DNA of 31,645 bases from Candidatus Eiseniibacteriota bacterium (GCA_035689165.1 DASSLZ010000246.1:1-31645); one strand, 5' to 3'. Shown: positions 184 through 23,797, counted from the stretch's first letter. Notes: generated by a model not told the origin, from the letters alone. A program made the numbers and translations.

Positions 184-273
184 CAAGCGGCCGCTTGGCG
201 CATCTCTCTATGTCAACGGGCCCGGTCGGGGACCGCTGATCGATCAGCGGTCGTTCTCGCATCAAAGCGAGAA
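184..273. repeat. Cluster of palindromes and inverted repeats in the left intergenic region
   Basis: CAAGCGGCCGCTTG (184-197) is a perfect 14-bp palindrome. GACCGCTGATCGATCAGCGGTC (231-252) is a perfect 22-bp palindrome. TTCTCGC-ATCAAA-GCGAGAA (254-273) is a 7-bp inverted repeat. Confidence 0.85.
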
Positions 274-281
274 GAGTGCCA
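266..281 (-). promoter_or_regulatory. Putative sigma54 -24/-12 promoter pointing out of the left edge
   Basis: Minus strand reads TGGCACTCTTCTCGCT: GG-N10-GC spacing, TGGCAC intact, -12 box TCGCT (one mismatch to TTGCW). Confidence 0.4.
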
Positions 282-466
282 ATCAGGGGGCGTTTCCGCG
301 TGGAGCGGGGCGCGCTGCGACATCGATGGTTACGCGGCCCGCGCGAGTAAGGGAATGCGCCCGGCGCCGGCGACGCCCGGGCGATTCTACAAATGACAAC
401 GACGAGTGCGCCTCGACGGGAGCGAGACCGTCGCGCGGACTCGCCGTCTTCGCGTTCACCTCGCGG

Positions 467-482
467 TGGCACACCTGTTGCG
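467..482 (+). promoter_or_regulatory. Putative sigma54 -24/-12 promoter of the topIB operon
   Basis: TGGCACACCTGTTGCG matches TGGCAC-N5-TTGC. It lies 33 nt before the ATG at 516, leaving room for the SD GAGGGA at 501-506. Confidence 0.7.
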
Positions 483-515
483 CCGCGCTCCTGCTCAGTC
501 GAGGGACCTGTGCCA

Positions 516-1514
516 ATGACCATCATCGAACGACTCCAGACGAACGGCATATGCCGGACCGGCTCGCCAGCGCGGGGATACCGCTATCGCTCCGCCAAGG
601 GCGCCGTCTCGCGTGAGGATCTGGCGCGTATCGACGCGCTGAAGATTCCTCCCGCGTGGACCCGCGTCGCCGTTTCGCCCTCGCCGAAATCCGCCGTGCA
701 GGCAGTGGGGCAGGACGCCGCCGGCCGGTGGCAGTACCTCTACCACGAGGCGCACGCCGCCCGGCGGGAACGGAACAAGCAGGAGCGGCTGGTCCGGTTC
801 ATCGCGGCACTGCCCAGGATGCGCCGCGCCGTCGCGCGCGACCTGCGCCGCCGGGGGCTTCCGCGCGAGAAGGTGCTGGCCGGAATCCTCAAGATCCTGG
901 GCACCTGCTTCCTCCGCCCGGGCAACCAGGTCTACACCGCGCAGAACGGGAGCTACGGCCTCGCGACGCTCCGGCGCCAGCACGTCAGCGTGGCGGGGGA
1001 CACCGTCGTGTTCGACTTCATGGGCAAGTCCAAGAAGCGCCAGCGCCGCGAGCTGGTCGATCCGGGTATCGCGCGGCTCGTGCGAGCGCTGCTTCGTTAT
1101 CCGGGAGAGGTCTTCAAGTTCCAATCCGAGGACGGCTCCATGGCCGACGTGCACACGGGGCACATCAACGCCTACATCAAGGAGGTCATGGGCGAACAGT
1201 TCAGCGCCAAGGATTTCCGTACGTGGGCGGGATCGCTCCTCTGCGCATGCGCCCTGGCCCGCGCCGGGGTGGAGCGAGCCCACACCCAGCATGAACGGAA
1301 GAAGCGGATCGCCGCGGCCCTGCGCGAAGTCGCCGACCACCTCGGCAACACGCCGGCCGTCTGCCGGTCCTCGTACGTGTTCCCGGCGGTTCTCCGGAAG
1401 TACGAGCAGGGTCGAGTGATCGGAACGTACTTCGAGGACGTGGCCGAGCTCTCCAACGGCAACGCGCGCCGCGTCGAGCGAAGCGAGCGGGCCCTGATCG
1501 AGCTGCTCCGATGA
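516..1514 (+). CDS. topIB: DNA topoisomerase IB (bacterial, poxvirus-like)
   Basis: Catalytic motifs FLRPGN (R), FMGKSKK (K), SAKDFRTW (K,R) and LGNTPAVCRSSYV (N,Y); N-terminal IPPAW and DAAGRWQYLYH. Start moved from 393 to ATG 516 because of the SD and promoter. Confidence 0.95.
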   Translation: MTIIERLQTNGICRTGSPARGYRYRSAKGAVSREDLARIDALKIPPAWTRVAVSPSPKSAVQAVGQDAAGRWQYLYHEAHAARRERNKQERLVRFIAALPRMRRAVARDLRRRGLPREKVLAGILKILGTCFLRPGNQVYTAQNGSYGLATLRRQHVSVAGDTVVFDFMGKSKKRQRRELVDPGIARLVRALLRYPGEVFKFQSEDGSMADVHTGHINAYIKEVMGEQFSAKDFRTWAGSLLCACALARAGVERAHTQHERKKRIAAALREVADHLGNTPAVCRSSYVFPAVLRKYEQGRVIGTYFEDVAELSNGNARRVERSERALIELLR

Positions 1515-3382
1515 GCCCTCGTCCCGCCCGCCCCGGCGCCAAGCTGGTCGTGATCCGTCCCGGAGACGGGGTCCCGACCCGGAACCGTCGCTCTGTCCGG
1601 GGGCAGGCGCGTTCGGAGCGCGACCCCGCCGAGCCGCGTCCGGACGGATCGGCTCCGACCGACCTCCTCATCCTCCACATCGGCTCCGGTCGCCTCACGC
1701 CGGAGGCGATGACGGCAGCCGCCAAGACGGTGTTCGAGCCGCGCGGCCTGACGCATCGGACGGTGACGGTCGAGGCCGGGCGCGGCGCCGAAGCGTCGGT
1801 GCGTCGCCACGTCGCGCGCGCGATCCGCGAGGGCTGCACGCGGATCGTTGCCGCGGGAGGCGACGGCACGGTCAGCATGGTGGCGCAGTGCCTGGCGCGG
1901 CGGCGCAAGCGCGACGTCCCGGTGTCGCTCGGCATCCTTCCCGGAGGCACCACGAACGTGCTGGCCCGCGAGCTGGGTATTCCGCTCGATCTGGAACAGG
2001 CGATGGCGGTGATCGCCGAGGCCGGCCAGGTCGTGGAGCTGGACGCCATCCTCGTGGGCCGGCGGTACGTCTTCACGCAGGTGGGCCTCGGCCCGGACGC
2101 GCTCATGATTCGCGACACGACCCGCGAGCGCCAGGAGAAGCTGGGCCGCCTCGCCTACGTCCTCACGTTCGTCAAACGCGCTTTCGGCTTCCGCCCGCGG
2201 TGGTTCACGCTGCGTCTCGACGGCGTCGTCGTGCGCGAGCGCGCCTGGCAGATCGTGGCCGCCAACGTGGGCACGGTGGGGGCGCCTCCGTTCACGTGGG
2301 GTCCCCGCATCGATCCCACCGACGGCATCCTCGATCTCTGCATCTTCAACGTGAACCGGAAACGCGACTTCGGAAAGCTGCTCTGGCGCGCCTTGACCAG
2401 CCGCCACCGGAGGGACGGGAACGCGCGTTTCTATCGCGTGAAGGACCGCGCCGTCGTGGAGTCGAGCCAGCCGGTGCTGGTGCAGGGCGACGGCGAGATC
2501 ATCGGGCGGACCCCGGTGACGCTGCGCCTCGTCCCCGCGGTCCTCAGGATCCTGGTCGCGAAGCCGGTGGCCGGCGTCGTTCCCACCGAGCCCGCCGCGG
2601 CGGCGGCGGAAGCGGCTCCATTGGCGGAGGACCGCGGGGTGGTTGCTTCGGAAGAGCCCGCTGCGGCATCGGCGACCGCTGCGGCGCCGGCGACCGCTTC
2701 CGCGCCGGCGGCCGCCTCGACGCCGGCCGTGGGCCCGAACGCCGCACCCGAGGCCGCGCCCACCGTGACCGAGGACGTGGCCCTGATGATCGGCGAGCGC
2801 TCCACCACGTGGCCGCTCCAGGGGATCTTCCGCCACCCGCTCGCGGCGATCGAGGCGTACGACGCCGCGATCTTCCTCCACCTCAACAACATCTCGTTTG
2901 GCAAAGGGGTGGACCGCGGCCTGGAGGCGCTCTCGCGCTTCCTTCACTACGGCGAGGGGTGGGCCGTCGTGGTGCTGCTCATCCTCTTCGTGAACCTGCG
3001 CCAGGGGCTGGAGGCCGCCGTCGTGGCGCTTCCCGCGCTGTGGGCCACCATGATCACGGTCAACGTCGTCCTGAAGCCGATCTTCCGGCGCCGCCGGCCC
3101 TTCATCGCCTTCGTGAAGGCGCGCGTCATCGGAACGCGGCCGCGCGACTTCTCCTTTCCCTCGGGGCACGCCGCGGCCGGGTTCGCCGGCGCGGTTCTGC
3201 TCGGCATGTTCCTGCCGCGCTGGGCCCCTCTCTTCTATCTCTTCGCGATCGCGGTGAGTTTCTCGCGGATCTATCTCGGCGTGCACTACCCGAGCGACGT
3301 CCTCATGGGGGCGTTCGCCGGAAGCGTCCTGGCCGTGGTCTATCGCGCGCTGATCCACCTTCTCGTCGCCGCCGGCGCCTGA
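1511..3382 (+). CDS. Diacylglycerol-kinase-family (YegS/BmrU-like) lipid kinase fused to a C-terminal PAP2 phosphatase
   Basis: Kinase motifs AAGGDGT, ILPGGTTNVLARELGI, GLGPDA, DGILD and QGDGE. An Ala/Pro linker follows, then the PAP2 triad KPIFRRRRP, SFPSGH and SRIYLGVHYPSDV among hydrophobic helices. ATGA overlap with topIB. Confidence 0.9.
   Translation: MSPRPARPGAKLVVIRPGDGVPTRNRRSVRGQARSERDPAEPRPDGSAPTDLLILHIGSGRLTPEAMTAAAKTVFEPRGLTHRTVTVEAGRGAEASVRRHVARAIREGCTRIVAAGGDGTVSMVAQCLARRRKRDVPVSLGILPGGTTNVLARELGIPLDLEQAMAVIAEAGQVVELDAILVGRRYVFTQVGLGPDALMIRDTTRERQEKLGRLAYVLTFVKRAFGFRPRWFTLRLDGVVVRERAWQIVAANVGTVGAPPFTWGPRIDPTDGILDLCIFNVNRKRDFGKLLWRALTSRHRRDGNARFYRVKDRAVVESSQPVLVQGDGEIIGRTPVTLRLVPAVLRILVAKPVAGVVPTEPAAAAAEAAPLAEDRGVVASEEPAAASATAAAPATASAPAAASTPAVGPNAAPEAAPTVTEDVALMIGERSTTWPLQGIFRHPLAAIEAYDAAIFLHLNNISFGKGVDRGLEALSRFLHYGEGWAVVVLLILFVNLRQGLEAAVVALPALWATMITVNVVLKPIFRRRRPFIAFVKARVIGTRPRDFSFPSGHAAAGFAGAVLLGMFLPRWAPLFYLFAIAVSFSRIYLGVHYPSDVLMGAFAGSVLAVVYRALIHLLVAAGA
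2670..2723 (+). repeat. Three imperfect 18-nt tandem repeats encoding part of the Ala/Pro linker
   Basis: CGGCGACCGCTGCGGCGC / CGGCGACCGCTTCCGCGC / CGGCGGCCGCCTCGACGC. Confidence 0.75.
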
Positions 3383-3393
3383 CCGGAGGAACA

Positions 3394-4266
3394 ATGCCCC
3401 AGAAGACCTCACCCAAGAAGGCGCAGCGACCGCCGCAGAAGCAGCGGCGCCAGCCGGGGCGCGAGCGCCTCATGAAGCCGCGGCCGCGGTACGACGATCC
3501 CGCGCGCCGCCCCTGCGGGCGGCTCCAGGGCAAGGCGGCCCTGATCACGGGAGGGGACAGTGGCATCGGACGCGCCGTGGCGGTGGCGTTCGCCAAGGAG
3601 GGAGCCGACGTGGCGATCGTCTACCTGGAGGAGCACGAGGACGCGCGGGAAACCCAGCGGCTGGTCCAGGAACAGGGCCGGCGCGCCCTCCTGATGGCGG
3701 GCGACGTGGGGGACGAGTCGTTCTGCCGCGAGGCGGTGCGCCGGACGGTCGCCGAGCTCGGGAAGATCGACGTGCTCGTCAACAACGCCGCCGAGCAGCA
3801 CCCCCAGGAACGCCTGGAGAAGATCACGGAAGAGCAGCTCGTCCGCACCTTTCGGACGAACGTCTTCTCCATGTTCTTCCTGACGCGCGCCGCCCTCCCC
3901 CATCTCAAGAGCGGCGCCTCGATCGTGAACACGACCTCCGTGACCGCCTATCGGGGGAGCGCGCATCTGATCGACTACGCGTCCACGAAGGGGGCGATCG
4001 TCTCCTTCACGCGCTCCCTCGCCCAGGCGCTCGCCGACCGGAAGATCCGCGTGAACGCCGTGGCGCCGGGGCCGATCTGGACGCCGCTCATCCCCTCGAC
4101 CTTTCCGCCGGACCAGGTCAAGACCTTCGGCTCGGACGTTCCGATGGGCCGCGCCGGCGAGCCGGTCGAGGTCGCTCCCCATTACGTCTTTCTCGCCTCG
4201 GAGGAGGCCTCCTACACCACGGGACAGGTCCTCCATCCCAACGGCGGGGAGATCGTGAACGGATGA
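3394..4266 (+). CDS. SDR oxidoreductase, YdaD/YhdF (general stress protein 39)-like
   Basis: ITGGDSGIG, NNAAEQH, YASTK, NAVAPGPIWTPLIP, and C-terminal GQVLHPNGG. SD GGAGGA precedes ATG 3394, which lies inside the 1888..4266 ORF. Confidence 0.92.
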   Translation: MPQKTSPKKAQRPPQKQRRQPGRERLMKPRPRYDDPARRPCGRLQGKAALITGGDSGIGRAVAVAFAKEGADVAIVYLEEHEDARETQRLVQEQGRRALLMAGDVGDESFCREAVRRTVAELGKIDVLVNNAAEQHPQERLEKITEEQLVRTFRTNVFSMFFLTRAALPHLKSGASIVNTTSVTAYRGSAHLIDYASTKGAIVSFTRSLAQALADRKIRVNAVAPGPIWTPLIPSTFPPDQVKTFGSDVPMGRAGEPVEVAPHYVFLASEEASYTTGQVLHPNGGEIVNG

Positions 4267-4661
4267 GCGCCGACGATGCTCCGCGCGAGGCGGACCGCTC
4301 CCTCTCGATTCTCGTCGTCGATGACGATCCCGACTCGGCGGACAGTCTGGCGCTGCTCCTCGAGCACTGGAACCACGCGGTCTGCGTGGCCTACGACGGA
4401 GCGCACGCCCTCGAGACCTTCCGGCGGCAACGGCCGTCGATCGTTCTGGTCGACATCGGGCTTCCCGACATGGACGGCTACGACGTGGCGCGCGCCCTCA
4501 AGGCCGAGGAGCATCCGGCCACCCTCGTGGCGCTGACCGGCTTTGGCCAGGATGGAGACCGGCGCTCTTCGAAGGAAGCGGGCTTCGATCACCACTTCGT
4601 CAAGCCGATCGATCTCCGCAGCCTTCGCGAGCTGCTCGATGCAGCCATCGCGAAATCTTGA
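4263..4661 (+). CDS. Stand-alone response regulator receiver protein
   Basis: ILVVDDD, LVDIGLPDMDG (phospho-Asp), ALTG and VKP; no output domain. ATGA overlap with the SDR gene. Confidence 0.9.
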   Translation: MSADDAPREADRSLSILVVDDDPDSADSLALLLEHWNHAVCVAYDGAHALETFRRQRPSIVLVDIGLPDMDGYDVARALKAEEHPATLVALTGFGQDGDRRSSKEAGFDHHFVKPIDLRSLRELLDAAIAKS

Positions 4662-4691
4662 GGCCGGGAGGCCTTGGCCGCAGCGCGCCGT

Positions 4692-4707
4692 TGGCCTTCA
4701 TATTGCA
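4692..4707 (+). promoter_or_regulatory. Putative sigma54 promoter of the DUF948-ytxH pair
   Basis: TGGCCTTCATATTGCA: GG-N10-GC spacing with TGGC and a perfect TTGCA, 90 nt before ATG 4798. Confidence 0.55.
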
Positions 4708-4797
4708 CCTCACCCAGAAGAGAAGGGGTTGGGCCAAAGGAGCGACACCGAGGGTGGTTCCAACCGCAAGGCCGATTGGGCCGGAGGAGGATGAAGG

Positions 4798-5220
4798 ATG
4801 TCGCTGCTACTCGAGATCTGCTTTGTAATTGTAACAATTGCGGTAGTGGCCATCGCCATCGCCACGGTACGCGCTCTCCAGCGGGTGGGGAAAACGACCG
4901 AGAAAGTCAACGAGCTCTCTGAAGAAGTTCGCGGCTGGATCGCTCAGTTGAAGCAGGTGACGAGCGGCGCCGAGGAACTCGTGGCCTCCGCCAAGGAAGT
5001 CGTGCCCCCCGTGCGGCGCGTCGTGGACCGCTTCGAAGCGATCGGCGTACGGACCGCCCAGCTCTCAGACGCCATTCTGGAAGAAGTCGAGCGTCCCGTC
5101 ATGACCGCCGTCGCCGTCGCGCGCGGGGTCCGAACGGGGACGGCGTACTTCTTCGAACGAATCACCAATCGTTTTCATCGCGGCCGCGCCGCGACGAACG
5201 GAGGCTACGCAGATGAATGA
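4798..5220 (+). CDS. DUF948 (YoxC/YtxG-like) membrane-anchored helical protein
   Basis: N-terminal TM helix followed by an amphipathic coiled segment; strong SD GGAGGAGG; overlaps the YtxH gene, the usual pairing for this family. Confidence 0.7.
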   Translation: MSLLLEICFVIVTIAVVAIAIATVRALQRVGKTTEKVNELSEEVRGWIAQLKQVTSGAEELVASAKEVVPPVRRVVDRFEAIGVRTAQLSDAILEEVERPVMTAVAVARGVRTGTAYFFERITNRFHRGRAATNGGYADE

Positions 5221-5623
5221 GAATCCTTATCTGAACGAAGAGTCCAGGGGCGGCGCCTCCGGGATGTCCGGCTTCGTGCTCGGCGCGATCGTAGGCGCCG
5301 GAGTAGCGCTGCTGTTCGCCCCCGCGGCCGGCACCGACACGCGCCGTAAGCTGGGCGAGACGGCCAAGCGCCTGGGCAGCAAGGCTCAGGAAATGGGCAG
5401 TGCGGCGCGCGACAAGATGCAGGAAGTGGGCAGCGCGGCCCGGGACAAGGTGCAGGAGGGTACCGACAAGCTTCATGAGCGTTTTGGCAGCGGAACGTCG
5501 TCCACGACCCCGGGGCAGGGCTTCGAGGCGGGCCGGCGGGAGCCGGTTCCCAGCACGGGCAGCACCACGAATCCTGGGCAGACGGGGCGTACCGGCACGA
5601 CGCCGGGACGCTCGAATCCCTAG
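5213..5623 (+). CDS. YtxH-domain general stress protein
   Basis: GFVLGAIVGAGVALLFAPAAGTDTRRKL signature; SD GGAGG; 8-nt overlap with the upstream gene. Confidence 0.88.
   Translation: MNENPYLNEESRGGASGMSGFVLGAIVGAGVALLFAPAAGTDTRRKLGETAKRLGSKAQEMGSAARDKMQEVGSAARDKVQEGTDKLHERFGSGTSSTTPGQGFEAGRREPVPSTGSTTNPGQTGRTGTTPGRSNP
5387..5452 (+). repeat. Two 33-nt tandem repeats (11-aa units) in the YtxH gene
   Basis: QEMGSAARDKM / QEVGSAARDKV; the third unit starts QEG. Confidence 0.85.
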
Positions 5624-5661
5624 TCGAGGTTCGAACATAGGAAAACCCCCCACAAGGGGGC

Positions 5662-5742
5662 GGCACCGCGGAGGTGTAGGCCGGACGGCAAGGGCTCAGG
5701 CTCGGCCGTATGCGAACTACACCTTTCGCGGGCCTTTTTTTT
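5662..5742 (+). terminator. Long hairpin followed by T8: intrinsic terminator or structured 3' end downstream of ytxH
   Basis: 5662-5679 pairs with 5717-5734 (17 bp, one bulge per side) and is followed directly by TTTTTTTT (5735-5742). Confidence 0.7.
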
Positions 5743-5757
5743 CGGTCCAAATCCGCA

Positions 5758-5766
5758 TGCTATCCT
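5758..5766 (+). promoter_or_regulatory. Extended -10 element (TGcTATCCT) of a probably leaderless kinase transcript
   Basis: TATCCT ends exactly 6 nt before ATG 5773; no SD is present. Confidence 0.55.
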
Positions 5767-5772
5767 GATCGG

Positions 5773-8463
5773 ATGCAACGCCCCTCCGCACGCGACCTGA
5801 TCCGCGCCGCAGGCGTCGCGGCCCTGTACTACGGGGCGGGGAGGCTGGGCCTTGCGCTCGCGTCGGTCAACTCCAGCGCGACGGCGGTCTGGCCTCCCAC
5901 AGGCATCGCGATCGCGGCCCTCCTCGTCTTCGGTTACCGCATGTGGCCCGCAATTCTCGCGGCCGCCCTCCTGGTGAACGTTCCGGTGTCGGGAGCCGGC
6001 GTCGTGTCGGCCGCCATCGCCGCCGGGAATACCCTCGAGGCGCTCGCCGGAGCCTGGCTCGTGCATCGCTTCGCCGGAGGAGCCGCCGCTTTCGAGGAGC
6101 CGCGCCGGATCTTCGCCTTCGCCGGGATGGCGCTCCTGGCCACGGCGGTGAGCCCCACCGTCGGCGTGACCGCGGTGGCGGGCGCCGGCGCCGTTCCGTG
6201 GAGCGGGTACGGGCCGATGTGGCTCACCTGGTGGCTCGGCGACCTCTCGGGCGCGCTCGTCGTGGCTCCGTTCCTGATTCTCTGGCTCTCGCGTCCCCGC
6301 GTCCGGTGGAAGCTGCGCCGCTCCGGGGAAGCCCTCGCTCTGTTCGCGTCGCTCATCCTCATCGCGTCGCTCGTGTTCGGGGGCGCCTCCAGCTTCCCGG
6401 GAGGGGCGCCTCCCCTCGAGTTCCTCTGCGTTCCCGTGCTGGTCTGGGCGGCGTTCCGATTCTCGCAGCGTGAGGCGTCGACGGCGACGGTGCTGCTGTC
6501 GGGGATCGCGATCCTGGGCACCCTTCGCGGCGCCGGACCCTTCGCCCGCGCCGACGTGAACCAGTCGCTGCTCCTCCTGCAGTCCTACACCTCGGTCTCC
6601 GCGGTGCTCGTGCTCGCTGTCACGGCGGCGCTCACCGGGCGCCGGCGCGACGAGGCGGGCGTGCGCCGGCTGGCCGGGGAGCTGGAGCGCCGCGTCGAGG
6701 CCCGCACCGCCGAGCTGAAGCGCGCGGTGCAGACCCTGCGCGAGGAGGCGCGCGAGCGCGAGCGGGCCCAAGAGGCGCTGGGAACGAGCGAGGCGCGGCT
6801 TCGCGAAGCGCAGCGGGTCGCGCGCGTGGGGAGCTGGGAGTGGGACATCGAGCGGGACTCGCTCTGGTGGTCGGAAGAGCTGTACGGGATCTACGGCGTG
6901 GATTCCGCCTCCTTCCCCGCCACCCTGGAGTCCTTCATCGCGCTCGTGCATCCCGAGGACCGGCCCCTGGTCCGGCGGGTGATCGAGGCGGCCCACCGGA
7001 ACCGGCAGCCGTTCAAGATCGAGCACCGCATCGTGCGCCCCGATCAGACGGTGCTCACCATGAGCGCGCGCGGCCGCGTGGTCACCGACGAGCAGGGGCG
7101 GGCAGTGCGGATGCTCGGCACCGGACAGGACGTGACTGACGAGAAGCGGGCCGAGGAGGAGCGCTCGCACCTCCTGGTGGAGCGCGAGGCACGGCGCCAG
7201 GCGGAGGAAGCGAACCGGCTCAAGGACGAGTTCCTGGCCACCCTCTCCCACGAGCTGCGGACGCCGCTCAACGCGATCGTGGGCTGGGCCAACCTGCTCC
7301 GCGAGGGGAACCTGGATCCCGCCACGACGACCCGCGCGGTGGAGACGATCAGCCGCAACGCCCAGATCCAGAGCCGACTCATCTCCGACATCCTCGACAT
7401 CTCCCGGCTCATCGCGGGCCAGCTGGACTTCAAGCTCCAGATGGTGAGCCTCGAGAACGTGATCGAGGGGGCGCTCGACACCATGCGCCCCGCGGCGGAG
7501 GCGAACGGGGTGCGCCTCGAGGCGAATCTCGCTCCCGGGATCGGCTCGGTGCTCGGAAGCCCCGACCGCCTGCAGCAGGTCGTCTGGAACCTTCTCTCAA
7601 ACGCGATCAAGTTCACGCCGAAGGGGGGACGCGTCTGGATCGTTCTCGCCGCGCGCGAGTCGAGCGCCGTCATCCGCGTGGAGGACGAGGGGATCGGCAT
7701 CGATCCCGACTTCCTGCCGCACGTCTTCGAGCGCTTCCGGCAGAAGAATCCTTCCAGCTCGCGGCGGCACGGCGGCCTGGGGCTGGGGCTCGCGATCGCG
7801 CGGCACATCGTCGAATTCCACGGCGGCACGATCACGGCGGAGAACCGCGAGAGCGGGCGGGGCGCGCGGTTCGTCGTGACGATGCCGCTCGTGGAAGCGA
7901 CCGAGGCGGCCCGTCCCGGTGAAGGCGACGCCGCGGGGCGGAGCGCCGCGGGCGCCGATCGACGCCCCGCGCCGTCCGGCGCGCCGCGCGCCGCCGCGCC
8001 GGCCGAAGGCGCGGAGGCGGAGCCCGCGCCGAACCCGCTCGCGGGGGTGCGCGCGCTCCTCGTCGAAGACGAGGCCGACTCGAGGGAGCTCCTGGCGCGG
8101 CTCCTCACGAGCTGCGGCGCCGAGGTGCGGGTCGCGGGCAGCGCGGCCGAGGCGCTGGGGCTTCTGGTCCGCGAGCACCCCAACCTCCTGATCAGCGACA
8201 TCGCGATGCCCGGTGAGACCGGCTACGACCTGATCGAGCGCGTTCGCGCGCTCCCTCCCGAGGCCGGCGGCCGGATCCCCGCGATCGCGGTGACCGCCTA
8301 CACCGGCGCGGAGGACGCGCGCCGCGCGCTCCGCTCGGGCTATCAGGCCCATCTCTCGAAACCGGTCCAGCTGCGGGAGCTGGTGCGCCTGGTGGCGGAT
8401 CTCAGGGACGGCTCTTCGCTCCCGCTCGAATCCCCCGGACCCTCGGGACCGCATGGCCGCTGA
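5773..8463 (+). CDS. Hybrid sensor histidine kinase (MASE1-PAS-HisKA-HATPase-REC)
   Basis: MASE1 (AVWPPTGIAIAALL, WWLGDLSG), PAS (GSWEWDI, VHPEDR), H-box SHELRTPLN, N-box NLLSNAIKFT, DEGIGI, GGLGLGL, and receiver LISDIAMPGETG...SKP. Confidence 0.95.
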   Translation: MQRPSARDLIRAAGVAALYYGAGRLGLALASVNSSATAVWPPTGIAIAALLVFGYRMWPAILAAALLVNVPVSGAGVVSAAIAAGNTLEALAGAWLVHRFAGGAAAFEEPRRIFAFAGMALLATAVSPTVGVTAVAGAGAVPWSGYGPMWLTWWLGDLSGALVVAPFLILWLSRPRVRWKLRRSGEALALFASLILIASLVFGGASSFPGGAPPLEFLCVPVLVWAAFRFSQREASTATVLLSGIAILGTLRGAGPFARADVNQSLLLLQSYTSVSAVLVLAVTAALTGRRRDEAGVRRLAGELERRVEARTAELKRAVQTLREEARERERAQEALGTSEARLREAQRVARVGSWEWDIERDSLWWSEELYGIYGVDSASFPATLESFIALVHPEDRPLVRRVIEAAHRNRQPFKIEHRIVRPDQTVLTMSARGRVVTDEQGRAVRMLGTGQDVTDEKRAEEERSHLLVEREARRQAEEANRLKDEFLATLSHELRTPLNAIVGWANLLREGNLDPATTTRAVETISRNAQIQSRLISDILDISRLIAGQLDFKLQMVSLENVIEGALDTMRPAAEANGVRLEANLAPGIGSVLGSPDRLQQVVWNLLSNAIKFTPKGGRVWIVLAARESSAVIRVEDEGIGIDPDFLPHVFERFRQKNPSSSRRHGGLGLGLAIARHIVEFHGGTITAENRESGRGARFVVTMPLVEATEAARPGEGDAAGRSAAGADRRPAPSGAPRAAAPAEGAEAEPAPNPLAGVRALLVEDEADSRELLARLLTSCGAEVRVAGSAAEALGLLVREHPNLLISDIAMPGETGYDLIERVRALPPEAGGRIPAIAVTAYTGAEDARRALRSGYQAHLSKPVQLRELVRLVADLRDGSSLPLESPGPSGPHGR

Positions 8464-10836: not shown

Positions 10837-10858
10837 AGGGCGCCGCGGCGGCCGCGCG

Positions 10859-16237: not shown

Positions 16238-16243
16238 GGGAGA

Positions 16244-16249
16244 ATTGTA
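16244..16249 (-). promoter_or_regulatory. -10 element (TACAAT) of a probably leaderless udgX-lhr transcript
   Basis: Minus-strand TACAAT ends exactly 6 nt before ATG 16237; no SD is present. Confidence 0.55.
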
Positions 16250-16295
16250 CCCCGGCCGGCGGGGCTCGAGCCATGCGGCGGAGCGTGCCGTGACA

Positions 16296-16318
16296 CGCGG
16301 CCGCGTCGAGCGGCCGCG
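16296..16318. repeat. GC inverted repeat, possible terminator of the LysM-lipoprotein unit
   Basis: CGCGGCCGC-GTCGA-GCGGCCGCG: 9-bp stem, no U-tract. Confidence 0.45.
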
Positions 16319-16331
16319 CGCCCGGCCCGCC

Positions 16332-16796
16332 TCACGTGCTCTTGACTTCGAACTCCTTCGTCGCGGCAGAGGTGCCGTTCACGAAGACCTCGACCTTGTA
16401 CTTCCCGACGGGGAAGCCGTCCGGCTTCGAGACGTGGAACTCGGTCACCGCCTGCCCGCTGGGGGCGATCGTCCGGGTCGATTCGTCCACGACCTGGCCG
16501 TCCTGGTACGTGAACCGCGTCTTGAGCTCGGCCGAAGGGGCCGACCCGTTGGTCACGACCGATGCGTAGATCGTCTGGTTCGGCAGGAACGTGTTCGTCT
16601 GGGTGGCCACGGTGTTGTCATTGGCGAGGCTCGTCCCGAGGTCGACGCGCGCCACCTGAACGCCCTGGGCCGAGGGAGTGGTCCCCTCCGTGCCCGAAGT
16701 GCTCGAGGTCTGGGTTCCGTTCTTCTGGCAGGCGCCGGTGAAGGCCGCAACCGTCAGGCAGAGCGCGACGGCGGCGGCACGGTGATCGAATCGCAT
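16332..16796 (-). CDS. Hypothetical lipoprotein, beta-rich (Ig-like)
   Basis: SD GGAGGA; signal peptide ending in lipobox FTGA-C; Thr/Ser linker; beta-strand-rich domain ending GKYKVEVFVNG. Confidence 0.8.
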   Translation of the reverse strand: MRFDHRAAAVALCLTVAAFTGACQKNGTQTSSTSGTEGTTPSAQGVQVARVDLGTSLANDNTVATQTNTFLPNQTIYASVVTNGSAPSAELKTRFTYQDGQVVDESTRTIAPSGQAVTEFHVSKPDGFPVGKYKVEVFVNGTSAATKEFEVKST

Positions 16797-16818
16797 ACGT
16801 CCTCCTTCACGTGGGGTG

Positions 16819-17073
16819 CTAGGGAAGCCGCAGGGTCCAGCCCGGCTCGATGTGGTCCGGATCGTGGATGCGGTCCTTGTTCGCTTCGTAAATCTTGTGC
16901 CACTGGCCGGCATCGCCGTAGTGATGCCGGGCGATCTTGGAGAGCGAGTCTCCGGGCTTGACGACGTACGTGGCTCCCGCGCCGCCGTCCTGAGCGGGCG
17001 ATGGCGCGGTCGACGACGATCCGCTCTGCACGTTGGAGAAATCGGGCCGGGATTGTTTCTTGTCATCCGCCAT
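16819..17073 (-). CDS. Small LysM-domain protein (84 aa)
   Basis: TYVVKPGDSLSKIARHHYGD...IYEANKDRIHDPDHIEPGWTLRLP; SD GAGG; no signal peptide. Confidence 0.92.
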   Translation of the reverse strand: MADDKKQSRPDFSNVQSGSSSTAPSPAQDGGAGATYVVKPGDSLSKIARHHYGDAGQWHKIYEANKDRIHDPDHIEPGWTLRLP

Positions 17074-17135
17074 GGCGGCACCTCGAATGGGGATAGGTCG
17101 ACTTCCGCCCCCGCAGACGCGGGACCGCGAAAGCC

Positions 17136-17151
17136 TGCATCCCCCATGCCA
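17136..17151 (-). promoter_or_regulatory. Putative sigma54 promoter of the LysM-lipoprotein unit
   Basis: Minus strand reads TGGCATGGGGGATGCA (GG-N10-GC), 62 nt before ATG 17073. Confidence 0.6.
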
Positions 17152-17203
17152 CCCGGGCGCCGGGGCGTCCCTTCGGGAACCGCTGCCGGGCGGGGGCGGC
17201 CCT

Positions 17204-17219
17204 GGGCACGCATGATGCG
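17204..17219 (+). promoter_or_regulatory. Putative sigma54 promoter of the second PIG-L gene
   Basis: GGGCACGCATGATGCG (GGCACG-N4-ATGC); the -12 C is 16 nt before ATG 17234. Confidence 0.5.
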
Positions 17220-17233
17220 ATCGCTCCCGGGCC

Positions 17234-18025
17234 ATGATCCTGATCGTGGGCGCCCACCCGGGCGACGAGTCGGCCGGCGCCTCGTCCGTTCTCTTTTCTC
17301 CCGACGACGTCTCGGTCCTCCACGCGACCGACGGCGCGCCGCGCGACCCCGCCGAGGCGCGAGCCAACGGGTTCGAGACCCGTGAAGCCTATGCGGCGGC
17401 GCGCGAGGCCGAGGCGCGGGCGGCGCTCGCGTTCGCGGGGATCCCGCCTTCGCGCCGCGTGACGCTGGGACAGATCGGGCGGGAAGCTTCCCTTCACCTC
17501 GCGGCGCTGACGCGGGCGGTCCTGGCGACGATCGAGCGGCTGCGCCCCGAAGTCCTTCTCACGCACGCCTACGAGGGGGGGCACCCGGACCACGACGCCG
17601 TCGCGTTCGCCACGCATGCCGCCGTGGCGCTGCGGCGCGCCTCCGGCTCGCCGGTCCCAGCCCTCTCGGAGATGGCCTCCTATCATCGGGGCCCCGGCGG
17701 AGGCTTCGAGTCGGGGGTCTTCCTGGGCGGTGCCGCGCCCGAAGACATCGTGCGCCGGCTGGACGCCGCCGCGCGCGCCCGCAAGTTGCAGCTCCTCGCG
17801 CGCTATCGAACTCAGTGGAGCTTCCTGCGACGGTTCCGCGTCGAGGAGGAGCGCTTCCGTCCCGCCCCTTTCTACGATTTCACGCGGCCGCCGCACGCCG
17901 GCCGCCTCTGGTACGAGCCCTTTCCCTGGGGCATGAGCGCGGCGCGGTTCGGAGATCTGGTGCGCTACGCGCTGCTGGAGCTGGGGCTCCGCCAGGCGGC
18001 CGAGCCCGTATCCAGCACGTCGTGA
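17234..18025 (+). CDS. PIG-L family deacetylase-like protein with atypical HPGDE motif
   Basis: VGAHPGDE, HATDGAP, REAEA and YEGGHPDHDA; C-terminal FTRPPHAGRLWYE. Confidence 0.85.
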   Translation: MILIVGAHPGDESAGASSVLFSPDDVSVLHATDGAPRDPAEARANGFETREAYAAAREAEARAALAFAGIPPSRRVTLGQIGREASLHLAALTRAVLATIERLRPEVLLTHAYEGGHPDHDAVAFATHAAVALRRASGSPVPALSEMASYHRGPGGGFESGVFLGGAAPEDIVRRLDAAARARKLQLLARYRTQWSFLRRFRVEEERFRPAPFYDFTRPPHAGRLWYEPFPWGMSAARFGDLVRYALLELGLRQAAEPVSSTS

Positions 18026-18029
18026 TTCG

Positions 18030-19808
18030 TCATCGCGCGGCACCCGCCGGATCGGCGACGAGGCAGCGAGTCAGCTGAGCGCGCCAGCGCTCTCGCGCGA
18101 GCTCGAGACGCGCGCGCTCGGGCGCACCCCGTTCCACCTCCGCGAAGAACGCGGTCTGGCCGGCGCGGTGCGCGGCGAATGCGGTGCGGTAGGCGTGAAG
18201 CGTGGCGGGCGCCGGCGGCGGTCCACCGGCATCGCCGTAGCCGCGGAGCATCGCCTCGGCCTGCGCCCCATGTAGATCCCATTCCTCCAGCGCTCCGGCG
18301 AGATCCCAGATCACCGGCTGCGGCCCCGTCCAGGTGTGGTCCACGTCGTGTCCGCCGACGTCGGTCTTCACGATGGCCCCCGACCGGGAGCGGATCCACT
18401 CATGGGGCGCCAGATGGCCGTCGCCGGCTCCGGGCGCGCTTGGCTCGTCGCGGCCCTTCCGAAACTCGGCCTCGGCCGCGCGGACCGCCTCGTTGCCGAG
18501 GATCTCCCCGGCGTTGGCGCGCAGCATTGCCGCCGTCCGCTCGCGCGCTTCGTGGGAGGCTTCGGGGGAAAGCGGCGGAAGGGCCGCCCGCGCGATGTAG
18601 GCGCCCATCCGGACCAGGAAGGGGAGCGAGGCGTCCTGGATGCCGAGAGGACGGCCGTCCACCCACTCCCAGGCCACGAAGCCGTGCATCTCGCCGAGCA
18701 GGCGCGGAGCGAACCCGAGCGCCGCGAGGGGAGCGGACCGCCGCGCGATCTGAGCCGCCAGCGTGCGCTCCATCCCCGGGGCGGTCGCGTGCCCGCAGAA
18801 CTTGAAGAGCACGCGGCCCCCGTCCTGCGAGGCGCAGAGAAGCTTGGGGCGCTCGAGCGGGCGCAGCACCGCGGGCCACGCCCGCTCCCCGCCGTAATGG
18901 GCTGCGCGCCACATGCCGCCGCCCACCTCGGTGACGCGGACGAGATCGCCGAAGGCCGTTCGCACTCCGGTCCAGAGCTCCTCGGCCAGTGTCCGCTCGC
19001 CGAACCGCTGCGGCGAATCCATCGCCGGGTAGGAGCGGAAGGATCGCCAGCGGGAGCGCGCCTCCGCCGGCGCGCCTCCCGGGCCGTTGCCATGCGCCGG
19101 GAAGAGGGCGATATCATCGATGCCGGTCCGCCGCATGGCCTCGGCGGCCGCGAGCATCGAGGAGCCGGACAGGCCGGGACCCTCGTCCACGACGATCCCG
19201 AAGGGCGCCCCGGGTAGCGGGACTTCCAGACGGCGCTCGAGGGGCTGGCCCGACGGGCGCACGGTGATCCGCTTGGCGCGGAATCCACGCGCCCTCAGCG
19301 TGGCCATGACGACCGCCGACAGCGTCGTCCCGATGGTTCGGATCCCAACCACGAGAACGCGCCGGTCGGGAGCGTTCTCGTGCTCGAGCGCCCAGCGGAG
19401 CGCCTGGTCCCGATAGGACTGCGGCATGAGGCCATAGAACGCGAAACCCTCGGGCACCTTCACGTCGACGGTGCCGCAGCGCCTGCGCAGCGGGGCGAGC
19501 GCGCGGCAGGAGGCGCCGACCGCCCGCGCCGCCTCCCCGGGCGTACCCGAGAAGGAGCGGTCGAAGGCCGTCGCGGCCAGGGTCGTGACACGGCGAGCGG
19601 CGGCCAGGTCGCGCGATCGAGCGCGTAGCGTTCCGACCTCCTCGGAGTCATCGAAGAGGGCCTGCTCGAGCTCGCCCGCGCGCTCGACCAGTCCGCGCAC
19701 GCGCGCCGGCCGGAGGTCCGCGGTTTGGGCCTGCTCGAGCATGAGGTTCAGCGTTTCGACGCAGCGCTCGAGCGGCTCCCGGCGCGAGGGATCTCCGTAG
19801 ACGATCAT
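18030..19808 (-). CDS. Hypothetical 592-aa protein with a PRTase-like central domain and a kinase/phosphotransferase-like C-terminal domain
   Basis: Starts MIVYGD with an ATGA overlap with the phosphatase stop. Motifs PEGFAFYGL, VVGIRTIGTTLS, IVVDEGPGLSGSS, DGHLAPHEW, KTD and WDLAGA. The domain labels are inferred from motif resemblance. Confidence 0.75.
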   Translation of the reverse strand: MIVYGDPSRREPLERCVETLNLMLEQAQTADLRPARVRGLVERAGELEQALFDDSEEVGTLRARSRDLAAARRVTTLAATAFDRSFSGTPGEAARAVGASCRALAPLRRRCGTVDVKVPEGFAFYGLMPQSYRDQALRWALEHENAPDRRVLVVGIRTIGTTLSAVVMATLRARGFRAKRITVRPSGQPLERRLEVPLPGAPFGIVVDEGPGLSGSSMLAAAEAMRRTGIDDIALFPAHGNGPGGAPAEARSRWRSFRSYPAMDSPQRFGERTLAEELWTGVRTAFGDLVRVTEVGGGMWRAAHYGGERAWPAVLRPLERPKLLCASQDGGRVLFKFCGHATAPGMERTLAAQIARRSAPLAALGFAPRLLGEMHGFVAWEWVDGRPLGIQDASLPFLVRMGAYIARAALPPLSPEASHEARERTAAMLRANAGEILGNEAVRAAEAEFRKGRDEPSAPGAGDGHLAPHEWIRSRSGAIVKTDVGGHDVDHTWTGPQPVIWDLAGALEEWDLHGAQAEAMLRGYGDAGGPPPAPATLHAYRTAFAAHRAGQTAFFAEVERGAPERARLELARERWRAQLTRCLVADPAGAAR

Positions 19809-20356
19809 CGCGCGACTTCCGGCGCCGCCGGCGCGGCGCTTCCGTTGAGCGAAGCCGGGTTCTCGAGTGTCTCGAAAACCGGAGGCGCGTCGTTCAGACG
19901 GACCAAGGTGGCTCCGTCCGCGGCCAGAACGGCGCCGTCGCTGTGGCGCTCGCGCTGGCGCTCGAGCGCGGCCACCGCCCGCACCTGCGTCTGGAGCATC
20001 GTCTCGCCGCCGGGAACGGGGGTCACGCTGCGGCACGTGTTGAACGCCCGCCAGGCGGGAACCGCCTCGAGCTCTTCGAAGGAGCGCCCGGTCCACTCGC
20101 CGAAGGACATCTCGCCCAGCGCGGGTTCGATCTCGGGCGCCAGCCCAAGCGCCGTCGCGATCGGGCCGGCGGTCTCGAGGCTCCTTTCGAGCGGACTCGT
20201 GACGAGGGCGTCCACGGGCACCGACTGGAATCGCTCGCGGAGCCAGTCGGCTTCGCGGCGGCCGCGCGCGTTCAGGTGCACCCCGGGCATGCGGCCCGCG
20301 AGAACGCGGCCGAGCAGGTCGTGCGAGGCATGGCGAACGAGGTAGAAGCGGGTCAT
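19805..20356 (-). CDS. Histidine phosphatase (PGAM-like) family protein, apparently with an internal deletion
   Basis: LVRHA, SPLERSLETA, GEMSFGEWTG and PGGETM are present, but the later SH motif region is absent. Confidence 0.8.
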   Translation of the reverse strand: MTRFYLVRHASHDLLGRVLAGRMPGVHLNARGRREADWLRERFQSVPVDALVTSPLERSLETAGPIATALGLAPEIEPALGEMSFGEWTGRSFEELEAVPAWRAFNTCRSVTPVPGGETMLQTQVRAVAALERQRERHSDGAVLAADGATLVRLNDAPPVFETLENPASLNGSAAPAAPEVAR

Positions 20357-20368: not shown

Positions 20369-20384
20369 AGCATCGGACGTGCCC
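20369..20384 (-). promoter_or_regulatory. Putative sigma54 promoter of the phosphatase-hypothetical unit
   Basis: Minus strand reads GGGCACGTCCGATGCT; the -12 C is 14 nt before ATG 20356. Confidence 0.55.
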
Positions 20385-20573
20385 CGATCGAGGCACCCCG
20401 TAAGTCATAACTTCACAAGCACATAGGTTTTGGGAGGGCGGGTCGCCCGCGGGCAATTCTACAAGGTCGTGAAAAGCGTTCTCATTGAACCGCCCAGCCC
20501 TGCCGACCGTCTATACTAGTACGGCGCCACCGCGCCGTCCCGCGTCCTAAATCCCGATTTTCGAGGTGGTTCC

Positions 20574-21593: not shown

Positions 21594-22682
21594 TCAGGCC
21601 CTCGCGCCGCTCAGTTCCGGAAGCGCTTCCTCGATCACGGCAGCGGTGAGCCGCGTCCAGTCGGGCGCGCCCACGCCGCCGTTCTTCGTTTTCTCGTCGG
21701 CGGCCAGGCGCAGCAGGGCCGAGGACGTGTAGGCGGCCAGGCGGTTCGGCCGGAGCACGCCGCCGCCGAGATATCCGGCGCGCAGCGCCTCGGCCCGGGC
21801 CGGCGCCATCTTCGTCCCTCCGCCTCGCTTCAGATCCGAGAGCATCATGTGCGCGATCAGCGTGCCCAGGTCGAGCTCCGGCTCCGCGAACGACGCGTCG
21901 TCGAGGTCCACCACCGAGATCCCGTCGGAGCCGAAGATGACGTGCGTGGGGCGAAGCTGCCGGTGAACCATCGAGGGGCTGCGCGACACGCCCCCATCGT
22001 CGGCCAGCTCGGCCTTCAGCACGCCGGCTCCGTCGCGCAGCCGGTCAGCGGCGCGCGCGTCGATCCCGGACTGCCGGAGCCGCGTCACGACGTCGTCCAG
22101 GTTCTGCGCTTCCGACGCCGCATCCCATCGCCCGAACGAAGGGCGCTCGGTGCTGCGGGCCGAGGGTCCCGGCGAACGGATCGCGTGAAACGAAGCCAGG
22201 GCGCGGCCGAGCCGCTTCAGGCTGGCGGCGACGCGGCTCTCGATCGGATCTTCGAGCACGCCCGCGAGCGGACGCCCGTCCATGGTGGTCTGGAGCAGAA
22301 GCTTGTGCTCGCGCGCGTATCCCAGCGGCGTGGGAACCCGGATCTCGGGCGCGGCGGCGGCGCGGAGGAAACGGAGGACCGGAAGCATCCGGTCGCCCTC
22401 GCCGGAGCGATACTGCAGGCCATGCCACGTGACGTCGGAGAAGGGAGAGCCCGCGCGCCGCGCGCTCACGCGGAAGCGGAGCGTCCGGCGGTTGTCGGGC
22501 CGCTCGCTCAACACGTCGACCGAACGGACCTCCTGAACGGTCCAGCCGGAGTCGGAAATCGCGTTCTGGAGAATCCGCGCCGCGCGGCTCGGATCGAGGA
22601 TGGGATCTCCGTGTCTCGTGTCCATCGGAGGCGACGCCGGCTCGCGCGAAGCGAAACCGCTGCTGCTGCTGATGTGGCTCAT
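21594..22682 (-). CDS. Aminoglycoside-phosphotransferase-like protein with degenerate catalytic loop
   Basis: IRVPTPLGY, VHRQLRPTHV, VVDLDDA and PELDLG. ATG 22682 has SD GGAG. The ORF-track GTG at 22763 directly abuts the promoter motif. Confidence 0.7.
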   Translation of the reverse strand: MSHISSSSGFASREPASPPMDTRHGDPILDPSRAARILQNAISDSGWTVQEVRSVDVLSERPDNRRTLRFRVSARRAGSPFSDVTWHGLQYRSGEGDRMLPVLRFLRAAAAPEIRVPTPLGYAREHKLLLQTTMDGRPLAGVLEDPIESRVAASLKRLGRALASFHAIRSPGPSARSTERPSFGRWDAASEAQNLDDVVTRLRQSGIDARAADRLRDGAGVLKAELADDGGVSRSPSMVHRQLRPTHVIFGSDGISVVDLDDASFAEPELDLGTLIAHMMLSDLKRGGGTKMAPARAEALRAGYLGGGVLRPNRLAAYTSSALLRLAADEKTKNGGVGAPDWTRLTAAVIEEALPELSGARA

Positions 22683-22763
22683 GGTGGCTCCGATCTGTCG
22701 AGCCCGGGTCGCGGGCGTCGGTCTTGGTGCGAGAAGAGCGAATGGGACTCGGAAGAGTGTCAC

Positions 22764-22779
22764 AGCAATGCCCGTGCCA
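22764..22779 (-). promoter_or_regulatory. Consensus sigma54 promoter of the APH-like gene
   Basis: Minus strand reads TGGCACGGGCATTGCT, an exact match to TGGCACG-N4-TTGCW. Confidence 0.75.
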
Positions 22780-23098
22780 TGATGTGTGGGTCCCCCATCC
22801 TTCGCATTGGCCTACGCTTCCGCCGCGCCCGCATCGTTTCGCGCGATCGCGGCTCCTCCGCCTTTTCTACAACTCTCCACGCGAACTGTCCCCGATCGAA
22901 CACTCGCGCGATGCGTCTCGTCATGAACCAGGCATTTCGAATTCATCAGGAGATCCGTCGGGAGAATCAGGCAGAGGTGGCGGAGGCAAGGATTCTAGAG
23001 GGAGTCGCTGCCGCGCGGACCGGACCCGCGGGGCGTCCCGTCGCGACCCGGACAGTCGCCCCGGCGCCCGCGGGCCGGCCGCGCGAACGCGACGCTTC

Positions 23099-23737
23099 TC
23101 ACCGAAGCATCGCGTATTCGGGCATCTCGCGTTCCAGCTCGTCGACGCGCGCCGCGCGCACGCGCGCCGCGATCCGTCCCGCGCCGTAGGCCACGGCGGT
23201 GGCGCCGAGGACTCCGGCGAGGAGTTGGAGCCCGGCGGGCATCGCCGGGACCGGATCGAAGACGCGATGGCGTCGGGAACCACGGAACTCGGAGACCTCG
23301 TCTTCGGCATCGTGCGGCTCTAGCCGGTTCAGCACCTCGCGCACGCCGCGAACGGAGGAGACCGCGCCGATCAGCGATTCCGCCTCTCCGCGCAGGATCG
23401 GTCCGTTCAGGACCACCGATCCGTCTCGCGCCTCCACGGACACCGCCCCCGGGTGCGTGACGTACCGGCACAGCTTGGCGCGCACGCGCTCGACGATCGC
23501 GTCATCCGGGCCCGATGGCGCGGCCGCGGCGGCTCGCGCGACGAGACCGCCGGCCCGGTTCCCCCGATTCTGAAGATCGTGCACCGCGTCATCGAGGAAT
23601 GCGCGGCTGTCCCCGAGCGCACCCGTGATCTGGTCGCGAATTCGCGCGCGGCGCGTCCGGCCCCGCGAGGGATCGAGGAGGTACATGAGCCCCGCGCCCA
23701 GCACGAGGCCGCGATAGAAGTTTGGTGACCGGACCAT
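23099..23737 (-). CDS. BON-domain protein with N-terminal YtxH-like anchor
   Basis: GLVLGAGLMYLLDPSRGRTRRA; BON domain DDAIVERVRAKL...VSVEARDGSVVLNG...SVRGVREVLNRL; SD GGGAGG. Confidence 0.85.
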   Translation of the reverse strand: MVRSPNFYRGLVLGAGLMYLLDPSRGRTRRARIRDQITGALGDSRAFLDDAVHDLQNRGNRAGGLVARAAAAAPSGPDDAIVERVRAKLCRYVTHPGAVSVEARDGSVVLNGPILRGEAESLIGAVSSVRGVREVLNRLEPHDAEDEVSEFRGSRRHRVFDPVPAMPAGLQLLAGVLGATAVAYGAGRIAARVRAARVDELEREMPEYAMLR

Positions 23738-23781
23738 GGATGCTCCCTCCCGTGGCGCACAACCGCGCTATACTTCGGCGC

Positions 23782-23797
23782 AGCAACAGGCATGCCG
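23782..23797 (-). promoter_or_regulatory. Putative sigma54 promoter of the BON gene
   Basis: Minus strand reads CGGCATGCCTGTTGCT (YGGCAYG-N4-TTGCW), 44 nt before ATG 23737. Confidence 0.7.

Follow-up and report, generated by a model that had tools for sequence, protein, structure and literature searches.

Conserved sigma-54-type promoter motifs precede stress-family genes and a small RNA in an uncultured bacterium of Candidatus Eiseniibacteriota

The DNA analyzed here (the window) is a stretch of 31,645 nucleotides (GCA_035689165.1 DASSLZ010000246.1:1-31645) from a Candidatus Eiseniibacteriota bacterium; it is contig C246 (31.6 kb, 1.1% of the assembly) of the metagenome-assembled genome (MAG) G000. 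A preliminary description of this sequence had reported eight GG-N10-GC motifs and had read them as sigma-54 (-24/-12) promoters of a stress regulon whose activator is encoded outside the window. I found that all eight motifs are present at the reported positions and on the reported strands. The motifs are probably (at a rough probability of 0.7) genuine sigma-54 promoters serving an island of stress-protection genes, which an NtrC-type bacterial enhancer-binding protein (bEBP) would open. This reading is supported by the presence of rpoN and bEBP genes in the genome, by an enrichment of the motif at the N5 spacing, and by its conservation in relatives. A small RNA, a shared upstream element, and a candidate activator appear to be new, as does the wiring of general-stress effector families to sigma-54.

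The assembly of G000 has 2.9 Mb in 360 contigs with 70% GC and an estimated completeness of 83.5%. The genes of the window were mapped with Pfam and NCBIfam, with frame plots, and by tblastx comparison with relatives. The promoters, the gene units, and the associated elements are as follows (minus and plus denote strands).

69..258, minus: structured non-coding RNA of about 190 nt, which ends in GCCCGCCCG-T7 (conservation, fold, covariation)
266..281, minus: putative sigma-54 promoter of the small RNA, TGGCAC-N5-CTCGC (TTGGCAC..CTCGC is invariant in 7 genomes and the upstream spacer diverges)
385..399, minus: candidate enhancer TTGTCATTTGTAGAA, common to the divergent promoters 266-281 and 467-482 (near-invariant in 7 genomes)
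467..482, plus: putative sigma-54 promoter TGGCACACCTGTTGC of the topoisomerase IB (TopIB) operon (the G001 ortholog has TGGCACATCTGTTGC)
516..4661, plus: gene row from TopIB to a response regulator (Pfam, NCBIfam, frame plot, start codons)
516-1514, plus: TopIB
1511-3382, plus: DAGK-PAP2 fusion, a lipid kinase-phosphatase
3394-4266, plus: YdaD-like short-chain dehydrogenase/reductase (SDR), NCBIfam subfamily NF005214
4263-4661, plus: single-domain response regulator
4692..4707, plus: sigma-54-like putative promoter of the TGGCC type, TGGCCTTCATATTGC (no letter differs in G001 and G002, although the upstream flank has diverged)
4798..5623, plus: stress-protein pair, DUF948 (4798-5220) and YtxH (5213-5623) (Pfam)
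5710-8463, plus: MASE1-PAS hybrid histidine kinase (Pfam)
8453-9289, plus: PIG-L protein, downstream of the hybrid kinase (Pfam)
to 10836, plus: pyridoxal phosphate-dependent decarboxylase (Pfam)
16332..17073, minus: LysM protein (16819-17073) and predicted lipoprotein (16332-16796) (translation; Pfam LysM E = 4.8e-11)
17136..17151, minus: putative sigma-54 promoter TGGCATGGGGGATGC of the LysM operon (the orthologs in G001, G006, and G009 are also preceded by sites)
17204..17219, plus: putative sigma-54 promoter GGGCACGCATGATGC, 15 nt 5' of an ATG (conserved in G001 and G002)
17234..18025, plus: PIG-L family deacetylase (Pfam)
18030..20356, minus: histidine phosphatase (19805-20356) with an overlapping gene for a 592-aa protein (18030-19808) (Pfam)
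20369..20384, minus: putative sigma-54 promoter GGGCACGTCCGATGC, 13 nt 5' of an ATG (conserved in G001)
20457..20464, minus: TTGTAGAA element, 81 nt 5' of the GG (G001 has TTGTAGGA at the same place)
21594..22682, minus: APH-fold kinase-like protein (Pfam APH; start set at ATG 22682)
22764..22779, minus: putative sigma-54 promoter TGGCACGGGCATTGC (TGGCAC..TTGC kept in 6/6 genomes)
22865..22872, minus: TTGTAGAA element, 94 nt 5' of the GG, in a conserved block (TGTTC-N6-GAACA, N14, TTGTAGAA)
23099..23737, minus: YtxH-like and BON-domain protein (Pfam, both below cut-off)
23782..23797, minus: putative sigma-54 promoter CGGCATGCCTGTTGC (GGCAYG..TTGC kept in 8/8 genomes of the family)
23874..23893, plus: imperfect inverted repeat TTGTAAC-N6-CTGCAAC (TTGCA-N9-TACAA on the gene strand), 85 nt 5' of the GG

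All eight motifs are intergenic, as had been claimed, once the start codons are set right; the long TopIB ORF has its first start at ATG 393, and the true start was set at ATG 516. The claim that seven motifs face gene starts also stood, and these seven lie 13-96 nt 5' of the start codons of gene units. The remaining motif, 266-281(-), had been thought to point off the left edge of the window. This part did not hold, because the RNA that follows this motif ends inside the window near position 69.

Is such a set of motifs expected by chance? Six of them fit the strict pattern GGCAY-N5-WTGC. In 100 dinucleotide-preserving shuffles of the window, the strict pattern occurred 0.74 times on average and 4 times at most, so that no shuffle reached the 6 observed. 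When up to 2 mismatches to TGGCAC-N5-TTGC were allowed, this loose consensus was not enriched in the window (18 found vs 20.6 expected) and was dropped as evidence. Thus, the signal is carried by the strict form and its context. Variation of the spacer over the whole assembly was used as a composition-matched control. At the N5 spacing there are 35 intergenic matches, of which 19 face a gene start within 300 nt, whereas the control spacings (N2-N4 and N6-N9) give 5-13 intergenic and 1-3 oriented matches; since the genes for these counts were called by a crude GC3-based caller covering 79% of the assembly, "intergenic" is approximate here. Only the N5 spacing is therefore enriched in intergenic, gene-oriented positions, and the window holds 6 of the ~36 strict intergenic sites. 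In agreement with the sigma-54 class, GG and GC are exactly 10 nt apart in a TGGCAC-N5-TTGC-like context. The two motifs outside the strict pattern, 266-281 (TGGCAC-N5-CTCGC) and 4692-4707 (TGGCCTTCATATTGC), are both conserved in relatives.

The gene island is syntenic in congeneric MAGs, among which G001 and G004 are very near to that of the window (94-96% identical at the RNA locus on the DNA level). In the orthologous upstream regions of up to eight related MAGs, the motifs are kept while the flanks diverge: the -24/-12 letters GGCA and TGC are fixed, and the N5 spacer varies together with the flanks. The BON promoter is kept in all eight genomes, including those in which the protein identity is only ~41-49%. 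The promoters of the small RNA (7/7 genomes), the APH-like kinase (6/6), and DUF948 (3/3) are likewise kept, as are those of the LysM operon in 4 genomes, PIG-L in 3, and the histidine phosphatase in 2, and the TopIB promoter was found in G001, G002, and G009. Letters kept amid diverged flanks are what selection on a sigma-54 promoter would predict, and this pattern seems hard to explain by recent common ancestry alone.

The genome has the machinery that such promoters need. An rpoN gene lies on contig C330 in a 481-aa frame, with a Sigma54_DBD domain (PF04552, 218.9 bits) and the RpoN box RRTVAKYR at residue 459. There are 17 full-length bEBP genes (PF00158), none of which lies in the window, and a concrete candidate for the activator was found on contig C35 (G000:C35:13181-14533). 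Its product consists of REC, Sigma54_activat, AAA_lid, and HTH_8 domains, with a GSFTGA loop and the Walker A sequence GLSGTGK. It reached no cut-off of the NCBIfam equivalogs; the best was AtoC, at 396 bits vs 714 required. Within the genus, the relatives with an ortholog of this bEBP (87-97% identity) are the same six that have the RNA and the BON gene, whereas G003, G007, and G008 have only paralogs of 43-45% identity. The distance between the bEBP and RNA genes is 1.5-4.8 kb in G001, G002, G005, G006, and G009 (4.7 kb in G001). Beside the bEBP gene in three genera there is a divergent GG-N10-GC site of the TGGCC type, followed by paralogs of DUF948, YtxH, and DUF892; thus, the sub-type of promoter 4692-4707 also precedes the paralogous DUF948 genes there. 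Three genomes of another genus (G010, G013, and G031) have a TTGTAG-N3-CTACAA palindrome 3' of the end of the bEBP ortholog; in G010 and G031, a sigma-54 promoter was seen next to it.

The surroundings of the bEBP gene vary. The block is rearranged between G000:C35 and G001:C60 (L123, L124), and C35 1-12606 matches G001 DNA 8-20 kb away in inverted order. In G001:C60 (L123:4796-6606), the RNA and bEBP genes are separated by genes for a YflT-like heat-stress protein and a GT4 glycosyltransferase. The YflT-like protein matches Pfam just under the cut-off, and the G000 contig ends before this region. A 230-aa gene upstream of the bEBP gene matched no Pfam family. The MASE1 hybrid kinase of the window as the cognate kinase of this bEBP is only a guess.

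A shared element lies upstream of several of the promoters. Five of the eight window promoters have an TTGTAGAA-type 8-mer between -81 and -112, in four elements in total. The TTGTCATTTGTAGAA element stands between the divergent promoters of the RNA and TopIB, at distances of 83 and 112 nt from their GG dinucleotides, and this arrangement is kept in G002 and G009. At the histidine phosphatase, APH-like, and BON promoters, TTGTAGAA or TTGTAACA lies 81-94 nt 5' of the GG and is conserved in the orthologs; of the 8 family genomes with the BON promoter, 7 also keep the TTACAAG of its upstream repeat and G005 does not. In the interval from -60 to -135, the element accompanies 5/8 window promoters vs 0/64 other candidate sites (those with a position weight matrix score of 13 or more), and its background probability is 0.0015 per random 75-nt window. 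The conserved element is thus a candidate activator site for five of the eight promoters, at which the bEBP might bind.

Further searches set the range of this element. A search for enriched 7-mers in the regions 5' of all 36 strict sites gave nothing convincing, and the shared element is limited to the window promoters. A scan of five genomes with the composite pattern of element and promoter gave no new regulon members. As a general promoter word, TTGTAGAA was rejected, as intergenic DNA shows no excess of it (8 intergenic vs 35 coding occurrences). GGAAC-N15-TTGT upstream of the APH-like gene was considered as a promoter of the extracytoplasmic function (ECF) type and set aside because its orientation is inconsistent between sites.

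It was revealed that the motif at 266-281(-) is followed by a conserved segment. The window and G001 are ~99% identical over ~190 nt 3' of the motif, while the surrounding intergenic DNA has diverged, and the identity ends at the GCCCGCCCG-T7 terminator near 69. The segment is present in seven genomes of the genus. Its fold is more stable than that of shuffled sequences (z = -6.3), and the consensus structure has 53 pairs, 6 of them with compensatory changes. Indels of 1, 7, and 12 nt between relatives favor a non-coding nature; a protein-coding reading of 1-266(-) was excluded by these indels and by the lack of a GC3 signal. Rfam 15 gave no match for the window or the RNA, at the gathering threshold or even with E values as high as 10. 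A covariance model of the RNA matched only the seven known genomes among 41 genomes of the family. Thus, the motif appears to drive a conserved, previously unlisted RNA that is structured and ends in an intrinsic terminator but has no homology to a described RNA family, and its transcription would depend on sigma-54. A motif, CGAAGAUCA, is repeated in the loop region and could serve in binding; G005, G006, and G009 have two copies, and G000 has a single full one.

The families named in the preliminary description (YdaD-like SDR at 3394-4266, YtxH, BON, and LysM) are indeed present. Regulons of the SigB, RpoS, or EcfG type are known to include YtxH, YtxG-type DUF948, YdaD-like SDR, YflT, DJ-1/PfpI (YfkM, YhbO), BON (OsmY), BON-LysM (YgaU), and DUF892 (YciE, YciF). 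Sigma-54 sites were also found on other contigs, before a DUF892 gene (G000:C299:17581-17600(-)) and a DJ-1/PfpI gene (C92:1137-1156(-)), both conserved in relatives; a cupin gene is preceded by a single site (C158:2860-2879(+)), seen in G000. No TTGTAGAA element was found within 260 nt of these three promoters. Together with the YflT-like gene of G001, the set of stress families comprises YtxH, DUF948, BON, LysM, the NF005214 SDR, DUF892, and DJ-1/PfpI. A role in general stress or desiccation is suggested by these gene families. Further sites precede genes that, from their N-termini, I take to encode a type IV pilin and a GspE-like ATPase. Such genes are common sigma-54 targets.

For expression, contigs from four soil metatranscriptome assemblies were matched to positions 1-20000 of the window. 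Contigs of 97% identity covering 4748-5774, 4754-5635, and 4733-5204 have depths of 39.5, 84.5, and 14.6, compared with ~3-10 in most neighboring bins. The small RNA is covered over 69-224 by a contig, and its depth in run X16 is 42. The DUF948-YtxH unit and the RNA are thus among the deepest contigs. Among the matches listed, no contig crosses the motif 4692-4707. The contigs fit transcripts that start just 3' of two motifs.

How would this system work? RNA polymerase with sigma-54 would wait in the closed state at each promoter until an NtrC-type response-regulator bEBP (REC, an AAA+ domain with GSFTGA, and a Fis-type helix-turn-helix) opens it. The bEBP would bind the TTGTAGAA-type site, with TTGTA/TACAA half-sites, ~80-110 bp 5' of the -24 element. 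The best candidate, G000:C35:13181-14533, would be switched on when phosphorylated by a kinase. Its targets would include the membrane and envelope protectants BON/YtxH, DUF948-YtxH, and LysM with the lipoprotein; the operon of TopIB, the lipid kinase-phosphatase fusion, the YdaD-like SDR, and the response regulator; and PIG-L deacetylase, the histidine phosphatase with the 592-aa protein, and the APH-like kinase. The non-coding RNA of ~190 nt probably adds a post-transcriptional arm, although any role of this RNA is conjectural. Dependence on sigma-54, binding of the bEBP to its site, and induction by stress are what I infer from the genomic evidence. It is possible rather than probable that the system amounts to an equivalent of SigB or RpoS built on sigma-54, in which one bEBP governs at least 8 units, the small RNA forms a lineage-specific arm, and the accessory island of activator, RNA, and effectors has been gained or lost as a whole within the genus.

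Several observations weigh against the sigma-54 regulon. The 4692 motif departs from TGGCAC at the fourth letter, with C in place of A. At 4692-4707, the RNA contigs begin 27-48 nt past the -12 GC and not ~12 nt past it; the libraries are assembled contigs from related strains and may contain DNA, and as evidence on transcription start sites they are indirect. The protein at 23099-23737 reaches 26.5 bits for BON (cut-off 27) and 18.9 for YtxH (cut-off 37.5). The shared element was found post hoc and its architecture varies (single 8-mer, tandem, or inverted repeat with N3, N5, or N9), and promoters 4692, 17136, and 17204 are without it in G000, so that more than one activator may be involved. 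The genome-wide count of the composite of element and promoter is similar to that of a backwards control; therefore, the argument rests on clustering and conservation and not on the count. The assignment of the bEBP comes from linkage and co-occurrence among related, non-independent MAGs. Finally, there are ~17 genes of the sigma-70 family, mostly of ECF size, in the genome; other stress sigma factors may thus exist and sigma-54 may not be the sole stress route.

Could the GG-N10-GC blocks be bound by a repressor or an ECF-type sigma factor, or be conserved only through close kinship? The near identity of G001 and G004 to the window genome and the departure of the 4692 site from TGGCAC are in line with this. 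However, the motif survives where the proteins are 41-50% identical and the intergenic flanks are too diverged for alignment, variation within the motif is confined to the N5 spacer between a fixed GGCA and TGC, the genome-wide enrichment is specific to N5, and matches precede the presumed type IV pilin and GspE-like genes. I therefore regard this explanation as highly improbable. A different view accepts real sigma-54 promoters and assigns them to several unrelated bEBP circuits, so that the stress theme is coincidental and there is no single regulon. The three promoters without the shared element, the distinct TGGCC sub-type of the DUF948 promoters, the 17 bEBP genes, and the lack of TTGTAGAA at the DUF892, DJ-1, and cupin promoters would all be accommodated by it. 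It seems quite unlikely, since five promoters have an element that all other candidate sites lack, genomes of the genus have either all or none of the island, the RNA, and one bEBP, and the TGGCC-type promoter adjoins that bEBP gene in three genera.

It is also conceivable, though somewhat unlikely, that the sigma-54 regulon is real but serves a specific program, such as osmotic or desiccation dormancy, a resting stage, or envelope remodeling. Many members are membrane or envelope proteins (BON, LysM, lipoprotein, DAGK-PAP2, PIG-L), a glycosyltransferase gene adjoins the RNA gene in G001, and the island is accessory within the genus. Against such a program stands the broad overlap with SigB and RpoS families (YtxH, DUF948, YdaD-like SDR, DUF892, DJ-1/PfpI, and YflT-like). 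The present data fit the specific and the general reading alike.

Some features of the gene units are given here. The genes of the 516..4661 row are probably co-transcribed. A soil metatranscriptome contig of 619 nt (run X16) joins 3398 straight to 4263; thus, the whole SDR gene is missing from some related strain. The same-strand genes at 5710..10836 are uncertain members of the DUF948-YtxH unit; they are syntenic in G001 and G002, and the long RNA contigs stop at 5635 and 5774. The PIG-L protein at 17234-18025 has a weak match to BshB-type deacetylases, far under the NCBIfam cut-off. No family match was found for the 592-aa protein at 18030-19808, the frame of which was set by tblastx conservation and GC3. 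The promoters 17204-17219 and 20369-20384 stand 15 and 13 nt from the ATG without a Shine-Dalgarno sequence, which implies near-leaderless mRNAs from sigma-54 promoters. This short geometry is kept for the histidine phosphatase in G001 and for PIG-L in G002; the PIG-L promoter of G001 is a few nt farther away. In the BON promoter region, a conserved AGTATAGCG block lies at 23766-23774(-), 8-16 nt 3' of the -12 GC, which places it on the predicted start site or immediately behind it; 7 genomes retain the block (G015 does not), and its neighbors vary. A 305-aa protein with a C-terminal Hsp20 domain is encoded at 25466-26383(+), 26 nt after an IMP dehydrogenase (IMPDH)-like gene, and no strict sigma-54 site precedes it.

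The IMPDH gene of the window is closest to those of MAGs mostly labeled Candidatus Eisenbacteria. At NCBI, the MAGs grouped in one genus (loci L021-L027) are assigned variously to Eisenbacteria, Bacteroidota, Omnitrophota, and Limnocylindrales. Public taxonomy is unreliable for this clade, and the phylum name is tentative because of these conflicting labels.

It is known that promoters of the sigma-54 class need an ATP-driven activator, which gives tight off-states. The NtrC-family regulons (NtrC, ZraR, AtoC, LuxO) resemble the present system in their GG-N10-GC promoters, their REC-AAA+-HTH_8 activators with a GAFTGA-type loop (GSFTGA here), an enhancer (here a candidate) ~100 bp upstream, and divergent promoter pairs that share one enhancer. 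In contrast, the targets here belong to general-stress families and not to nitrogen, metal, or quorum functions. LuxO-Qrr1, CbrB-CrcZ, and GlrR-GlmY are examples of sigma-54-dependent small RNAs encoded beside a bEBP gene. The present RNA is like Qrr1, CrcZ, and GlmY in its sigma-54-type promoter, its candidate upstream site, its intrinsic terminator, and the bEBP gene 1.5-4.8 kb away (in five genomes), but it has no Rfam match and was found in a seven-genome subclade only. PspF-psp, RtcR-rtcBA, and Borrelia Rrp2-RpoN-RpoS likewise use sigma-54 and a bEBP for a stress or adaptation response. However, PspF-psp and RtcR-rtcBA are single operons, whereas here at least 8 stress-effector units would have their own sigma-54 promoters. 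In the Borrelia cascade, sigma-54 serves only to make RpoS (PMC2940757).

In the literature searched, I found no precedent for general-stress families (YtxH and BON among them) under sigma-54, nor for sigma-54 in Eisenbacteria. General stress responses are textbook cases of sigma switching within the sigma-70 family. The SigB regulon of Bacillus, the RpoS regulon of E. coli, and the EcfG regulon of Alphaproteobacteria overlap with the present one in their target families. Unlike the present regulon with its -24/-12 promoters, they are driven by alternative sigma factors of the sigma-70 family through partner switching or proteolysis. The present regulon would therefore be a functional analog of those regulons and not a member of their class.

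In this lineage, sigma-54 thus seems to take the place that SigB or RpoS has in model bacteria. Wiring through sigma-54 would mean that expression does not leak at the basal level, that activation depends on ATP, and that two-component signals feed in. If this is true, the general stress regulon would be a functional module reached by convergence and open to control by either class of sigma factor, and a first regulatory handle on an uncultured soil phylum would be gained. The eight promoters, the candidate enhancer, the named activator gene, and the new small RNA are testable parts.

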